A DNA stretch of 17,578 nucleotides, taken from the UHGV virus genome UHGV-0086244; one strand, 5' to 3'. The notes beneath the pieces are model-generated. The model was given only the letters and a program-made list of their open reading frames with translations, was not told where the DNA came from and made no database searches. Within the stretch, counting starts at the first letter, position 1, and each line of letters opens with the position of its first letter. The stretch comes from a virus. The position numbers and the translations under genes are program-made. Shown in pieces: positions 8,698-17,528 of the stretch.

Positions 8698-8726
8698 ATA
8701 ATAGCAATGCGTATTAACCATGGCAA
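8698..8726 (-). promoter_or_regulatory. pR-like sigma70 promoter for the cro-like gene (-35 TTGCCA, 17-bp spacer, -10 TATTAT on the minus strand)
   Basis: Hexamers read from the reverse complement; both overlap the two operator-like 16-bp sites. Confidence 0.5.
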
Positions 8727-8740
8727 TAGCAAAACGTGTT
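8700..8740. promoter_or_regulatory. OR-like operator pair: two 16-bp sites AATAGCAATGCGTATT (8700..8715) and AATAGCAAAACGTGTT (8725..8740), 25 bp centre to centre
   Basis: Same AATAGCAA-N4-T(A/G)TT motif recurs twice at the pL-like region with identical spacing. Confidence 0.55.
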
Positions 8741-8767
8741 TTGACCATCAATACGCAAGCGTATAAA
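8741..8767 (+). promoter_or_regulatory. Candidate pRM-like promoter for the repressor (-35 TTGACC, 15-bp spacer, -10 TATAAA), overlapping the 14-bp palindrome ATACGCAAGCGTAT
   Basis: Hexamers seen in sequence; the short spacer is suboptimal; would give a near-leaderless cI mRNA starting close to the ATG at 8777. Confidence 0.3.
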
Positions 8768-8776
8768 TTAAAACTT

Positions 8777-9469
8777 ATGAAAAAAGAAACTCTTGCTGAT
8801 CGCTTAAACCTAGCGATGGAACAATCTGGGATGTCTCAAGGCGCTCTTGCAAAGGCGTCTGGCGTAGCTCAACCCACAATCTGGAGACTGACAAGCGGCA
8901 ACGCGCGCGGCTCAACAAAAATTGTTGAAATAGCTAATGCATTGGGTGTTCGAACAGAGTGGCTCTCATCAGGCATAGGCCCGATGAGAAATGACGGTCA
9001 ACAATCAGGGAAGCCTACTGTCAACCATTCCAAATACTTCAAGATTGACGTTCTTGATATAGAAGTGAGTGCCGGGCCGGGAGTCATCAACCGTGAGTTT
9101 GTAGAAGTCCTACGCTCGGTTGAGTACTCGTTTGACGATGCTCGTCACATGTTCGATGGCAGGAAGGCGGAAAATATCCGCATCATTAACGTACGTGGTG
9201 ACAGCATGTCAGGAACAATCGAACCAGGTGATCTGCTGTTCGTTGATATCACGGTTAAATCTTTCGACGGTGATGGCATCTATGCGTTTCTGTACGACGA
9301 CACAGCCCATGTAAAGCGCCTGCAAATGATGAAGGATAAGCTGTTGGTTATCTCTGATAACAAGAGCTACTCACCGTGGGACCCGATCGAGAAAGACGAG
9401 ATGAACCGGGTGTTCATTTTTGGGAAAGTCATCGGGAGCATGCCGCAGACCTACAGGAAGCATGGGTAG
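8777..9469 (+). CDS. cI: CI-type prophage repressor: N-terminal XRE-family HTH and C-terminal S24 (LexA-like) autopeptidase domain; not lambda cI
   Basis: HTH segment LADRLNLAMEQSGMSQGALAKASGVAQPTIWRL; C-terminal VRGDSMSGTIEPGDLLFVD ... K motif typical of S24 peptidases; the longest ORF starts at 8720 but would overlap the pR-like promoter, so the ATG at 8777 is preferred. Confidence 0.85.
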   Translation: MKKETLADRLNLAMEQSGMSQGALAKASGVAQPTIWRLTSGNARGSTKIVEIANALGVRTEWLSSGIGPMRNDGQQSGKPTVNHSKYFKIDVLDIEVSAGPGVINREFVEVLRSVEYSFDDARHMFDGRKAENIRIINVRGDSMSGTIEPGDLLFVDITVKSFDGDGIYAFLYDDTAHVKRLQMMKDKLLVISDNKSYSPWDPIEKDEMNRVFIFGKVIGSMPQTYRKHG

Positions 9470-12581: not shown

Positions 12582-13367
12582 ATGAGTACAGCACTCGCAA
12601 CGCTGGCTGGGAAGCTGGCTGAACGAGTCGGCATGGATTCTGTCGACCCACAGGAACTGATCACCACTCTTCGCCAGACGGCATTTAAAGGTGATGCCAG
12701 CGATGCGCAGTTCATCGCATTGCTGATCGTCGCCAACCAGTACGGTCTTAATCCGTGGACGAAAGAAATTTACGCCTTCCCTGATAAGCAGAACGGCATC
12801 GTTCCGGTGGTGGGCGTTGATGGCTGGTCCCGCATCATCAACGAAAACCAGCAGTTTGACGGCATGGACTTTGAACAGGACAACGAATCCTGCACATGCC
12901 GGATTTACCGCAAAGACCGCAATCATCCGATCTGCGTTACCGAGTGGATGGATGAATGCCGCCGCGAACCATTCAAAACCCGCGAAGGCAGAGAAATCAC
13001 CGGACCGTGGCAGTCGCATCCCAAACGGATGTTACGGCATAAAGCCATGATTCAGTGTGCCCGTCTGGCCTTCGGATTTGCTGGTATCTATGACAAGGAT
13101 GAAGCCGAGCGCATTGTCGAAAATACTGCATACACTGCAGAACGTCAGCCGGAACGCGACATCACTCCGGTTAACGATGAAACCATGCAGGAGATTAACA
13201 CTCTGCTGATCGCCCTGGATAAAACATGGGATGACGACTTATTGCCGCTCTGTTCCCAGATATTTCGCCGCGACATTCGCGCATCGTCAGAACTGACACA
13301 GGCCGAAGCAGTGAAAGCTCTTGGATTCCTGAAACAGAAAGCCACTGAGCAGAAGGTGGCAGCATGA
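12582..13367 (+). CDS. bet: Bet (Red-beta single-strand annealing protein)
   Basis: Protein [66 protein letters not shown]... essentially identical to lambda Bet from memory. Confidence 0.97.
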
Positions 13368-14044
13368 CACCGGACATTATCCTGCAGCGTACCGGGATCG
13401 ACGTGAGAGCTGTCGAACAGGGGGATGATGCATGGCACAAATTACGGCTCGGCGTCATCACCGCTTCAGAAGTTCACAACGTGATAGCAAAGCCCCGATC
13501 AGGAAAGAAGTGGCCTGACATGAAAATGTCCTACTTCCACACCCTGCTAGCTGAGGTTTGCACCGGTGTGGCTCCGGAAGTTAACGCTAAAGCGCTGGCC
13601 TGGGGAAAACAGTACGAGAACGACGCCAGAACCCTGTTTGAGTTCACTTCCGGCGTAAATGTTATTGAATCCCCGATCATCTATCGCGACGAAAGTATGC
13701 GCACCGCCTGCTCTCCCGATGGTTTATGCAGTGACGGCAATGGCCTTGAGCTGAAATGCCCGTTTACCTCCCGGGATTTCATGAAATTCCGGCTCGGTGG
13801 TTTCGAGGCCATAAAGTCGGCTTACATGGCCCAGGTGCAGTACAGCATGTGGGTGACGCGAAAAGATGCCTGGTACTTTGCCAACTATGACCCGCGTATG
13901 AAGCGTGAAGGCCTGCATTATGTCGTGATTGAGCGGAATGAAAAGTATATAGCGAGTTTTGACGAGATGGTGCCGGAGTTCATCGAAAAAATGGACGAGG
14001 CACTGGCTGAAATTGGTTTTGTATTTGGGGAGCAATGGCGATGA
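13364..14044 (+). CDS. exo: Exo (lambda 5'-3' exonuclease, Red-alpha)
   Basis: Protein [65 protein letters not shown]... matches lambda Exo from memory; start overlaps the bet stop. Confidence 0.97.
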
Positions 14045-14467: not shown

Positions 14468-14679
14468 CACCTCAGCAGGAAAACGCCCTTCGCAGCATTG
14501 CCCGTCAGGCTAATTCTGAAATCAAAAAAGCCAGACAGCAGTTTCCGGATAAAAACGTCGATGACATTTGCCGTAGCGTACTGAAGAAGCACCGCGAAAC
14601 GGTAACGCTGATGGGATTCACACCGACTCATTTAAGCCTGGCAATCGGCATGTTAAACGGCGTCTTTAAGGAACGATGA
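14464..14679 (+). CDS. Lambda orf61-like small protein (71 aa from the ATG at 14464)
   Basis: MTPQQENALRSIARQANSEIKKARQQFPDKN...; the ORF-track entry 14368..14679 is a longer frame whose upstream part looks non-coding. Confidence 0.55.
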   Translation: MTPQQENALRSIARQANSEIKKARQQFPDKNVDDICRSVLKKHRETVTLMGFTPTHLSLAIGMLNGVFKER

Positions 14680-14777
14680 ACATGAAAAGCAAAATCATCA
14701 GGGAGCTACAGGCTCCTTTTTTATTATTCGCATTCACCCTCAAGCGTATTAACCAACAATTCAGGGATTAATGGAAG

Positions 14778-14999
14778 ATGGCAGACATCATTGATTCAGC
14801 ATCAGAAATTGAAGAATTACAGCGCAACACAGCAATAAAAATGCGCCGCCTGAACCACCAGGCTATATCTGCCACTCATTGTTGTGAGTGTGGCGATCCG
14901 ATAGATGAACGAAGACGCCTGGTCGTTCAGGGTTGTCGGACTTGTGCAAGTTGCCAGGAGGATCTGGAGCTTATCAGTAAACAGAGAGGTTCGAAGTGA
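14778..14999 (+). CDS. TraR/DksA-family C4 zinc-finger protein (lambda orf73-like)
   Basis: CxxC-N17-CxxC pattern (CCECGDPIDERRRLVVQGCRTCASC) typical of TraR/DksA zinc fingers; position matches lambda orf73. Confidence 0.8.
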   Translation: MADIIDSASEIEELQRNTAIKMRRLNHQAISATHCCECGDPIDERRRLVVQGCRTCASCQEDLELISKQRGSK

Positions 15000-15151
15000 G
15001 CGAAATTAACTAGAAGCCAAAGATAAAATCATCGCTGAGCAGGAGAAAATCGCTAACGGAGAAAAGACAGTAAGTCAGTATATGAAAACCGCATGATATC
15101 ATCAGATAAAAATCGGTCGTAAAGCGAAATATTAATACCAGAACAAACGAG

Positions 15152-15175
15152 TCGAGGTAAATTATATTACCTCGA
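15152..15175 (-). terminator. Hairpin (9-bp stem TCGAGGTAA/TTACCTCGA, 6-nt loop) downstream of the minus-strand membrane gene; possible terminator
   Basis: Perfect inverted repeat read directly; the flanking U-tract on the minus strand is weak. Confidence 0.3.
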
Positions 15176-15209
15176 TAAATTAACTAAAACTTGCCCGCTA
15201 TATACTATA

Positions 15210-15812
15210 TCATTCAGTATCATCACGCGCGGTCTGTGCATATGTCACTACCGCACCTAATATATTAATTTTCTTTTCAACATAGATAATATTATCGTAC
15301 TCATAATTGCCATACGGATAGCAAATGCGAATATTCTCATGTAGATCGGGGTCATCCACCTCAGCTCCAGAACAACTTTTTGAACTACCGGAAGTATACC
15401 GATACGGTGCAACATAAGACGATGTCTCTCCAGGCAAAAAATAAGTTAGTGTCGTAAGGGGTATAATCAGAAAAAATCCAGCAAATATGCACATCCCTGC
15501 ATAAACCTTAAGGTATGCTGACAGACTCTTCCAGCCTCTTTGTTTTACTATCCCCTTCTTAACCCAAAACAGAGATAACAGAAAAGCTATTCCCATGCTA
15601 AACAGAATGTAATAGTGGGATATACTCTGATTAAGAAACGTGACCCTGTAGATATCTGCCCGCCACCAGAAGAAAAGGAAAATAAAGATCAGCCCTGAAA
15701 CTGTCATGCAAATCAAATAAGGATACGAATCTTTTTTCATGTTTAGCGCCCATAAAATTTTTCCTGACCCGGACAAATTTACCATCCATTTTTTGCGCAG
15801 AAAATAGCTCAT
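15210..15812 (-). CDS. Hypothetical inner-membrane protein (200 aa, about three TM helices plus a roughly 75-aa soluble C-terminal domain); moron in the ea22/ea8.5 position
   Basis: AT-rich ORF antisense to the pL operon; hydrophobic segments YLICMTVSGLIFIFLFFWW, YYILFSMGIAFLLSLFWV and VYAGMCIFAGFFLIIPLTTLTYFL; start codon uncertain. Confidence 0.6.
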   Translation of the reverse strand: MSYFLRKKWMVNLSGSGKILWALNMKKDSYPYLICMTVSGLIFIFLFFWWRADIYRVTFLNQSISHYYILFSMGIAFLLSLFWVKKGIVKQRGWKSLSAYLKVYAGMCIFAGFFLIIPLTTLTYFLPGETSSYVAPYRYTSGSSKSCSGAEVDDPDLHENIRICYPYGNYEYDNIIYVEKKINILGAVVTYAQTARDDTE

Positions 15813-16054
15813 TACTTACTGCACAATAATACACAAAATTGCGTAAATTTTTTGCATGGATTTTAGCTCTTTCAGCCGACATTTAAGGGGTAAATAGCAT
15901 TTCCTAAAAGCAACTGCACCAACCCAACAGAATGGGCTACCGCTTACGTTGAGAGCAAAAAAGTGTATAGCAGCAATGAACAGCATCCTCGCACTGACGA
16001 GGATTTCTTTTATCTGAACTCGCTACGGCGGGTTTTGTTTTATGGAGATGATAA

Positions 16055-16222
16055 ATGCACTTCCGAGTCACAGGTGAATGGAATGGAGAACCATTCAACA
16101 GAGTTATCGAAGCCGAGAACATCAGCGACTGCTATGACCACTGGATGCTGTGGGCGCAGATAGCACATGCAGACGTAACCAATATTCGAATTGAAGAACT
16201 GAAAGAACACCAAGCCGCCTGA
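16055..16222 (+). CDS. Small protein upstream of xis (55 aa, MHFRVTGEWNGEPFNRVIEAENISDCYDHWMLWAQIAHADVTNIRIEELKEHQAA), lambda orf55-like
   Basis: Hand translation; GGAG about 9 nt upstream; position matches the small ORF adjacent to xis in lambda. Confidence 0.5.
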   Translation: MHFRVTGEWNGEPFNRVIEAENISDCYDHWMLWAQIAHADVTNIRIEELKEHQAA

Positions 16223-16238
16223 TGGCGGTTTTTTCTTG
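16213..16238 (+). terminator. Intrinsic terminator-like hairpin (AGCCGCC-UGAU-GGCGGUU followed by UUUUCUUG) between the 55-aa ORF and xis; tL3-like
   Basis: GC-rich 7-bp stem with a T-tract on the plus strand, overlapping the stop of the 55-aa ORF. Confidence 0.55.
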
Positions 16239-16261
16239 CGTGTAATTGCGGAGACTTTGCG

Positions 16262-16480
16262 ATGTACTTGACACTTCAGGAGTGGAACGCACGCCAGCGA
16301 CGCCCAAGAAGCCTTGAAACAGTTCGTCGATGGGTACGCGAGTGCAGGATATTCCCTCCTCCGGTTAAGGATGGAAGAGAGTATCTGTTCCACGAATCAG
16401 CGGTAAAGGTTGACTTAAATCGACCAGTAACAGGTAGCCTTTTGAAGAGGATCAGAAATGGGAAGAAGGCGAAGTCATGA
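16262..16480 (+). CDS. xis: Excisionase Xis
   Basis: Protein MYLTLQEWNARQRRPRSLETVRRWVRECRIFPPPVKDGREYLFHESAVKVDLNRPVTGSLLKRIRNGKKAKS matches lambda Xis from memory; overlaps the int start. Confidence 0.95.
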   Translation: MYLTLQEWNARQRRPRSLETVRRWVRECRIFPPPVKDGREYLFHESAVKVDLNRPVTGSLLKRIRNGKKAKS

Positions 16481-17528
16481 GCGCCGGGATTTACCCCCTA
16501 ACCTTTATATAAGAAACAATGGATATTACTGCTACAGGGACCCAAGGACGGGTAAAGAGTTTGGATTAGGCAGAGACAGGCGAATCGCAATCACTGAAGC
16601 TATACAGGCCAACATTGAGTTATTTTCAGGACACAAACACAAGCCTCTGACAGCGAGAATCAACAGTGATAATTCCGTTACGTTACATTCATGGCTTGAT
16701 CGCTACGAAAAAATCCTGGCCAGCAGAGGAATCAAGCAGAAGACACTCATAAATTACATGAGCAAAATTAAAGCAATAAGGAGGGGTCTGCCTGATGCTC
16801 CACTTGAAGACATCACCACAAAAGAAATTGCGGCAATGCTCAATGGATACATAGACGAGGGCAAGGCGGCGTCAGCCAAGTTAATCAGATCAACACTGAG
16901 CGATGCATTCCGAGAGGCAATAGCTGAAGGCCATATAACAACAAACCCTGTCGCTGCCACTCGCGCAGCAAAATCAGAGGTAAGGAGATCAAGACTTACG
17001 GCTGACGAATACCTGAAAATTTATCAAGCAGCAGAATCATCACCATGTTGGCTCAGACTTGCAATGGAACTGGCTGTTGTTACCGGGCAACGAGTTGGTG
17101 ATTTATGCGAAATGAAGTGGTCTGATATCGTAGATGGATATCTTTATGTCGAGCAAAGCAAAACAGGCGTAAAAATTGCCATCCCAACAGTATTGCATGT
17201 TGATGCTCTCGGAATATCAATGAAGGAAACACTTGATAAATGCAAAGAGATTCTTGGCGGAGAAACCATAATTGCATCTACTCGTCGCGAACCGCTTTCA
17301 TCCGGCACAGTATCAAGGTATTTTATGCGCGCACGAAAAGCATCAGGTCTTTCCTTCGAAGGGGATCCGCCTACCTTTCACGAGTTGCGCAGTTTGTCTG
17401 CAAGACTCTATGAGAAGCAGATAAGCGATAAGTTTGCTCAACATCTTCTCGGGCATAAGTCGGACACCATGGCATCACAGTATCGTGATGACAGAGGCAG
17501 GGAGTGGGACAAAATTGAAATCAAATAA
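16458..17528 (+). CDS. int: Tyrosine integrase Int (lambda-type, 356 aa)
   Basis: Protein MGRRRSHERRDLPPNLYIRNNGYYCYRDPRTGKEFGLGRDRRIAITEAIQANIELF... with C-terminal HLLGHKSDTMASQYRDDRG catalytic region; matches lambda Int from memory. Confidence 0.97.
   Translation: MGRRRSHERRDLPPNLYIRNNGYYCYRDPRTGKEFGLGRDRRIAITEAIQANIELFSGHKHKPLTARINSDNSVTLHSWLDRYEKILASRGIKQKTLINYMSKIKAIRRGLPDAPLEDITTKEIAAMLNGYIDEGKAASAKLIRSTLSDAFREAIAEGHITTNPVAATRAAKSEVRRSRLTADEYLKIYQAAESSPCWLRLAMELAVVTGQRVGDLCEMKWSDIVDGYLYVEQSKTGVKIAIPTVLHVDALGISMKETLDKCKEILGGETIIASTRREPLSSGTVSRYFMRARKASGLSFEGDPPTFHELRSLSARLYEKQISDKFAQHLLGHKSDTMASQYRDDRGREWDKIEIK

Follow-up and report, generated by a model that had tools for sequence, protein, structure and literature searches.

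Introduction

Morons, in the sense of Juhala and Hendrix, are inserts of foreign composition that bring their own expression signals into an otherwise collinear phage genome (PMC3594210). One lambdoid moron, HK97 gp15, mediates superinfection exclusion (Cumby et al., 2012, reviewed in PMC3594210): this small inner-membrane protein blocks genome entry and leaves the outer-membrane receptor untouched. SieA of phage P22, an inner-membrane protein of 162–164 amino acids (aa) with three predicted helices, is read from a promoter of its own in the prophage, opposite in strand to the neighboring genes, and blocks DNA injection (PMC10883804). Anti-phage genes are also concentrated in the old/tin locus of P2-like phages, between gpA and gpQ, which Rousset et al. 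(2022) described as a hotspot rich in such systems (PMC9122126). Their 'system #4' (Table S5B), marked '3 TM' and without a Pfam match, occurs 470 times; it was catalogued only, with no function or name given. Here we analyze a gene for a predicted membrane protein in the UHGV virus genome UHGV-0086244, a stretch of 17,578 nucleotides (nt) that we call the window and whose plus strand runs in the direction of the lambda pL operon. Sequence comparison gives good support for reading the block that carries this minus-strand gene as a moron, i.e., a horizontally acquired, self-contained transcription unit in the variable exo–xis region. Our best guess at its function, offered tentatively, is superinfection exclusion at the cell envelope.

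The closest described relatives lie in both phage types. The representative of system #4 is 51% identical to the window protein over 168 aa (BLASTP; E 2e-56) and resembles it in length, in its three helices, and in the C-terminal motifs CSGAxVDDPDL and ICYPYGxY; it is likewise single-gene cargo of a prophage variable locus. System #4 resides in P2-like myoviruses between gpA and gpQ, whereas the window gene belongs to a lambdoid phage and lies between orf73 and ORF55. At the same position, phages 434 (CPT_434_36; OL657226), mEp332, and 2B8 carry genes within DNA that is 98.4–99.4% identical over 14700–16300; CPT_434_36 is annotated as 'putative membrane protein' and no function is assigned in these phages.

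Comparison with the two exclusion proteins reveals likeness of kind. HK97 gp15 combines deviant composition and its own expression signals with a small inner-membrane product; the window gene parallels it with deviant composition, candidate expression signals, and a predicted inner-membrane product. The homologs of gp15, as here, are confined to Enterobacteriaceae, many of them chromosomal rather than prophage-borne (PMC3594210). It differs in lying in a tail operon, and of the two it is gp15 for which exclusion has been demonstrated. The conserved part of SieA is predicted to be cytoplasmic, whereas that of the window protein is predicted to be periplasmic; SieA is also restricted to P22-like phages at one locus (PMC10883804). 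Kinship with SieA was rejected (hhalign probability 0.1%; motif FxRYPxEAxxFNK absent), as was membership of the HK97 gp15/YebO family, for which there was no YebO Pfam match, a judgment made by the Pfam model and not against the gp15 sequence itself. Lambda ea22 and ea8.5 occupy the same exo–xis slot as the window gene. They are soluble proteins encoded on the pL strand and expressed early in infection, whereas the window gene is convergent, encodes a predicted membrane protein, and is unrelated in sequence.

Results

A foreign block replaces ea22 and ea8.5

Alignment of the window with lambda (blastn) gave 99% identity up to 15011 and 96% from 15985 on, and the lambda segment between these two junctions contains ea22 and ea8.5. 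The left junction (15011/15012) falls 16 bp into ea22; the right junction lies just beyond ea8.5. Most lambdoid phage records match the flanks only and not the intervening block. The features of the block are as follows.

15012–15984: block replacing lambda ea22 and ea8.5; 973 bp, G+C content (GC) 0.381
15120–15877, minus strand: core mobile cassette (upstream region, gene, and hairpin); 758 bp
15152–15175, minus strand: hairpin TCGAGGTAA / TTACCTCGA; perfect 9-bp stem, 6-nt loop, -12.9 kcal/mol
15210–15740, minus strand: membrane-protein gene; 176 aa from Met25 (ATG at 15740–15738) plus stop codon
15741–15812, minus strand: 24-codon extension of the 200-aa reading frame; not conserved as protein, with stops in homologous loci
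15776–15804, minus strand: candidate core promoter; -35 TTTTCT (15804–15799), 17-nt spacer, extended -10 TGGTAAATT (15784–15776)
15816–15986, minus strand: 56-codon open reading frame (ORF), CPT_434_35, 'putative membrane protein' in the 434 record
15820–15847, minus strand: three direct repeats with 10-bp phasing, TTTACGCA, TTGTGTA, and TTGTGCA

The block is substituted DNA relative to collinear relatives and its base composition is unlike that of the flanking genes. GC is 0.381 in the block and 0.373 in the cassette, compared to 0.502 in the left flank and 0.455 in the right, and GC at third codon positions is 0.39 in the membrane-protein gene versus about 0.6 in exo and bet. A single plus-strand ORF of at least 40 aa is present in the block, starting at 15963.

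The cassette recurs as a unit elsewhere. Positions 15120–15877 align at 76% nucleotide identity (blastn) with the gpA–gpQ hotspot of an E. coli P2-like prophage (L013), the alignment spanning the hairpin, the gene, and 137 nt 5′ of its ATG; Salmonella P2-type loci share 67–71% nucleotide identity with the cassette. Recurrence across unrelated phage types is in keeping with a moron that is mobile and self-contained.

A preliminary description of the window, made from its letters, had proposed an opposite-strand, AT-rich moron in place of ea22 and ea8.5, encoding a 200-aa membrane protein between orf73 and xis and followed by a perfect 9-bp-stem hairpin. The strand and composition, the replacement, and the hairpin are all borne out, and the moron reading gains from the recurrence of the unit in a P2-like prophage. 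Two points need amendment: the ORF (15210–15812) is there, with its length over-extended, and the position between orf73 and xis is right, with ORF55 rather than xis as the immediate right neighbor. The description mentions neither the upstream repeats nor the 56-aa ORF of the 434 record.

The gene is conserved from an internal start codon

The mechanical minus-strand ORF between orf73 and ORF55 has 200 codons (15210–15812). Its relatives, which are 169–180 aa long, all start at the residue aligned to Met25, with the motif MKKDSYPYL. In every other locus examined, including the closest P2-type relative, an in-frame stop lies 3–16 codons upstream of the equivalent ATG, and the N-terminal extension is frameshifted in some E. 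coli copies (P0027). For these three reasons the true start is almost certainly Met25 and the protein 176 aa rather than 200 aa long. Existing records differ in their choice of start, giving 188 aa in 434 and 200 aa in mEp332, whereas the comparative data lead to 176 aa. The 24-codon stretch at 15741–15812 is probably 5′ untranslated and promoter sequence and not coding.

From Met25 on, the gene bears the marks of purifying selection. In comparisons with P2-locus relatives, dN/dS (the ratio of nonsynonymous to synonymous substitution rates) was 0.09–0.17 with dS saturated, and the C-terminal domain was the most constrained part. Across 21 aligned sequences, with identity down to 42%, 30 columns are invariant.

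The 56-codon ORF of the phage 434 record shares its frame with the 200-codon ORF, with only TAA and GTA between them. We considered it as a second membrane-protein gene and rejected this as unlikely: it overlaps the conserved upstream and repeat region, and codons 1–36 are not part of the shared cassette DNA. It matched no Pfam, PADLOC, or NCBIfam model and is probably not a gene.

Candidate expression signals flank the gene

The hairpin at 15152–15175 lies 35 nt past the stop codon, is followed on the minus strand by the T-rich tail CTCGTTTGTT, and passes a terminator consensus scan. It is partly retained in the E. coli P2-like locus, with one compensatory A-T to G-C change. Perfect 9-bp hairpins number four in the whole window versus 0.5 expected from shuffles. 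The hairpin at 15152–15175 is the likely intrinsic terminator of the cassette.

Upstream, the sequence TG[GA]TAA[AT]TT (15784–15776, about 36 nt before the ATG) is retained in all P2-locus relatives aligned, and the segment 15776–15804 could be an extended -10 promoter with a weak -35. Further upstream stand the three direct repeats at 15820–15847. The unit (A)TTGTGCA is kept in P2-type cassettes (L013, L004, and L005), and one Salmonella locus is short of exactly one 10-bp repeat unit. With no more than one mismatch allowed, the window contains a single double repeat, compared to 0.01 expected. The array resembles a binding site for a regulator; the second and third repeats are labeled a CII site in the phage 434 record.

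The protein is predicted to expose a conserved domain to the periplasm

The product had been described as a predicted inner-membrane protein, with topology prediction and a remote-homology search proposed as checks. Hydropathy analysis identified three hydrophobic membrane segments, and an AlphaFold model built from the alignment of 21 sequences (predicted local distance difference test score, pLDDT, 87; predicted template modeling score 0.73) agrees: three long helices are followed by a C-terminal beta domain of five strands and about 75 aa. A further short strand, in the first loop, is modeled adjacent to this domain, which also gave a pLDDT of 88 when modeled alone.

Across the alignment, lysine and arginine are enriched in two places, the N terminus (1.7 in 6 residues) and loop 2 (3.5, up to 5), while loop 1 is neutral and the C-terminal domain acidic. 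From this distribution and the positive-inside rule we infer that the N terminus is inside and the C terminus outside, with the beta domain in the periplasm. About 20 residues would then be cytoplasmic, nearly all of the non-membrane mass being the periplasmic domain. The only invariant cysteines, C123 and C140 in the 176-aa numbering, both fall in this domain, at the base of one beta hairpin, and are probably disulfide-bonded.

Homology searches led to no characterized protein. Database searches returned 74 relatives, all from Enterobacteriaceae and none with a functional name. The protein matched no Pfam, NCBIfam, or PADLOC model, and a Pfam scan at E up to 1 yielded just a sub-threshold match to DUF6057. 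PHROG 1416, a family of unknown function, extends over no more than the C-terminal 88 aa, and PHROGs otherwise name nothing. Nothing scored below E 1e-3 in the BFVD viral fold library, and a sequence search of the PDB gave no match. A profile search of 1.84 billion representatives returned only 62 matches; two long repeat proteins among them had only weak sub-threshold Pfam matches and were treated as noise. The element is of a known kind, and its protein family one without assigned function or recognizable fold.

The cassette is common in E. coli and its family extends beyond phages

The cassette is not new as sequence, being present in phage 434, many E. coli genomes, and the published hotspot catalogue. 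Among 50,697 records, the isolated phages that carry it are only 434, mEp332, and 2B8. By contrast, 905 of 5,426 complete E. coli genomes (17%) hold at least 80% of 15100–16050. Hundreds of genomes carry an intact copy of the gene, as does the decayed attLambda prophage of O157:H7 (Sakai Sp3, ECs_0804; EDL933, CP-933K).

In P2-like prophages the gene sits between the portal gene Q and the replication gene A, i.e., in the old/tin hotspot. The profile family of the window protein includes the following members at this locus.

P0044 and P0048: Salmonella
P0039: E. coli
P0054: Klebsiella
P0050: Enterobacter hormaechei

In the loci examined the gene always stands alone, with no constant partner. 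Because the family is common cargo in the P2 anti-phage hotspot, it is a good candidate for blocking other phages. The association is only circumstantial, since the tables of tested systems in Rousset et al. (PMC9122126) do not contain the family motifs.

Chromosomal copies also occur. They are syntenic over at least seven Enterobacter species, where they adjoin a GGDEF-HAMP gene, and further copies are found in Cedecea and Klebsiella sp. R390 and on Pantoea megaplasmids. A Serratia copy lies on a PLSDB 'plasmid' record (NZ_CP042515.1, L039) that carries mltG-tmk-holB-ptsG and looks like a mislabeled chromosomal fragment. We looked for a conserved partner gene among the chromosomal copies and none recurs, apart from two cases involving the phosphotransferase system (PTS). 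In Serratia marcescens (L039, 3333–5510) and Klebsiella sp. R390 (L033, 3882–6543), the gene is directly beside a glucose-family PTS EIIBC gene, ptsG and bglF-like, respectively. PTS permeases are a DNA entry route for lambdoid phages. This adjacency may hint at a target or may equally be chance, as other chromosomal copies have unrelated neighbors.

One further match was to a 3.5-kb contig (L021) of a 'Candidatus Nanosynbacter' metagenome-assembled genome, whose exo, orf73, and membrane-protein sequences are 100% identical at the protein level to those of the window; this suggests binning contamination.

Neighboring features of the window

The genes and edges around the block are as follows.

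12582–13367, plus strand: bet
13364–14044, plus strand: exo
Between exo and orf73, plus strand: small exo–xis ORFs
14778–14999, plus strand: orf73, DksA/TraR zinc-finger gene
14996–15013, plus strand: remnant of the ea22 start, GTG AGC GAA ATT AAC TAG (GTG start, five codons, then TAG)
15985–16004, plus strand: terminator-like hairpin, t-L4 in the old 434 record
16055–16222, plus strand: ORF55, between the replaced block and xis
16262–16480, plus strand: xis
16458–17528, plus strand: int

The lambda ea22 start corresponds to window position 14996, and the short frame from there to 15013 is a remnant left at the recombination junction. The t-L4 hairpin lies exactly where lambda homology resumes and marks the right edge of the substitution. 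No Rfam family matched within 14600–16400. Phage 434 differs in carrying a further 436 bp, including ORF114, between ORF55 and xis (L001, 3036–3471; at about 16231–16234 of the window); the window and mEp332 lack this segment.

Elsewhere in the window, a cI-like repressor with HTH_3 and Peptidase_S24 domains is encoded at 8720–9469 on the plus strand. Downstream of it, in the position of lambda rexA/rexB and through 11143 on the same strand, are ORFs of 340 and 168 aa. These two match no Pfam or PADLOC model and are a candidate prophage-expressed pair.

Discussion

Superinfection exclusion as the tentative function

HK97 gp15, P22 SieA, and T4 Imm and Sp are precedents for interference with phage entry. 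We propose that the window gene may work along similar lines. Being convergent with pL, the gene would be readable only when pL is quiet, i.e., in the lysogen. With pL repressed there, it would be read from its own weak, probably factor-assisted candidate promoter. The protein would insert into the inner membrane, and its periplasmic face would interfere with an envelope step of the incoming phage; the step most likely affected would be the one in which the tail tip, the tape-measure protein, or the DNA crosses the periplasm and inner membrane. The outcome would be superinfection exclusion rather than an abortive response in the cytoplasm. In lytic growth, antitermination would let pL transcription run antisense through the gene and silence it. 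With about 20 predicted cytoplasmic residues, a conserved domain predicted to be periplasmic, and no partner, the protein is expected to act or sense at the membrane or in the periplasm, which in turn favors interference with entry over an abortive system that senses in the cytoplasm.

The preliminary description had suggested expression from the prophage with exclusion or another benefit to the host. This functional reading is plausible and is strengthened only by the association with the P2 hotspot, and several observations weigh on the other side. We found no phenotype or expression data for any family member. The protein has no likeness to a known exclusion or defense protein, the search of PADLOC-DB v2 being empty at E up to 1. 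The consensus scan gave neither a strong sigma-70 promoter nor a candidate at 15776–15804. Besides lacking the family's motifs in its tables of tested systems, the hotspot survey shows that non-defense cargo, e.g., partition systems and cytolethal distending toxin, is held at the same locus (PMC9122126). The chromosomal synteny in Enterobacter and the copies on Pantoea megaplasmids, moreover, suit a housekeeping envelope role equally well.

Alternative explanations

Such a role is the core of the alternative that survives best, which we nonetheless regard as rather unlikely: the gene would be a lysogenic-conversion or host-fitness factor unrelated to phages, its domain modulating an envelope process such as stress tolerance, immunity to bacteriocins or contact-dependent toxins, or the activity of a transporter, e.g., a PTS permease. 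The phage-borne copies are in loci enriched for anti-phage genes, which speaks against it, and beyond the two PTS cases no neighbor recurs among the independent chromosomal contexts. In its favor are the syntenic non-prophage copies in at least seven Enterobacter species, the copies in Cedecea, Klebsiella, and Serratia and on Pantoea megaplasmids, the two chromosomal copies beside EIIBC genes, and the non-defense cargo of the P2 hotspot. The chromosomal copies are no argument against exclusion by the phage copies, since HK97 gp15 also has chromosomal relatives (YebO) without exclusion activity (PMC3594210).

We consider it improbable that the gene is a CII-activated life-cycle function in the establishment of lysogeny, whose transcript, protein, or both would favor lysogeny in place of ea22. 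That idea draws on the sequence TTGT-N6-TTGT (15823–15836, minus strand), which fits TTGY-N6-TTGY and has a third repeat 10 bp upstream, on the candidate core promoter being weak as CII-dependent promoters are, and on the replaced ea22, which is reported to favor lysogeny (PMC7093339). The lambda CII consensus, however, is TTGC-N6-TTGC, and the genuine pI site of the window has exactly this form (16236–16249). The looser pattern occurs seven times in the window versus 4.5 expected, i.e., at chance level, and the CII site of the 434 record is not significant on its own. The conserved repeat unit, at 7–8 nt, is longer than the CII tetrad, and the gene is also found in chromosomes without surrounding phage. 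The repeats are, furthermore, equally conserved in P2-like prophages, which to our knowledge have no lambda-type CII. Control by CII is thus not established, the loose consensus being near chance and the repeats conserved outside lambdoid phages.

An abortive-infection effector, i.e., a latent membrane-disrupting toxin that would kill or arrest the cell once infection is sensed, seems to us just as improbable. Small transmembrane proteins are common as defense effectors and are among the cargo of the hotspot, but here the gene is always single, a sensor partner is missing, and the predicted cytoplasmic part of its product is minimal. The conserved part is predicted to be a folded periplasmic domain and not the helices, and stable carriage in 17% of complete E. 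coli genomes, together with core-like chromosomal positions, argues against toxicity. Lastly, a spurious or decaying ORF in junk DNA from recombination, an idea in keeping with the missing family annotation and with the 24-codon extension and 56-aa ORF being artifacts, is refuted for practical purposes by the purifying selection and invariant columns described above, the confident structural models, and the intact gene in hundreds of genomes.

Significance

If the exclusion reading is carried to its specific form, the window gene would represent a new single-protein envelope exclusion system that lambdoid and P2-like prophages have in common and that about one in six complete E. coli genomes carries. 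Its disulfide-clamped periplasmic domain would jam the entry of siphophages at the inner membrane, possibly at PTS-permease sites, as the two chromosomal copies beside ptsG and the bglF-like gene hint; we regard this reading as possible, though doubtful. A bolder extension would have the promoter repeats respond to a regulator of the incoming phage such as CII, making this an infection-induced exclusion gene.

Were phage entry not blocked, the element would be an ordinary moron. If exclusion is true, a new family with an unmatched fold would join the short list of inner-membrane exclusion proteins, i.e., HK97 gp15, P22 SieA, and T4 Imm, and a function would be at hand for the fourth most frequent cargo of the P2 defense hotspot. 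The lambdoid exo–xis and P2 gpA–gpQ slots would be shown to exchange the same cassettes. Carriage of the cassette is unusually frequent and extends to O157:H7 and the classic phage 434; if entry is blocked, the host range of phages used for therapy in E. coli, Salmonella, and Klebsiella could be affected.

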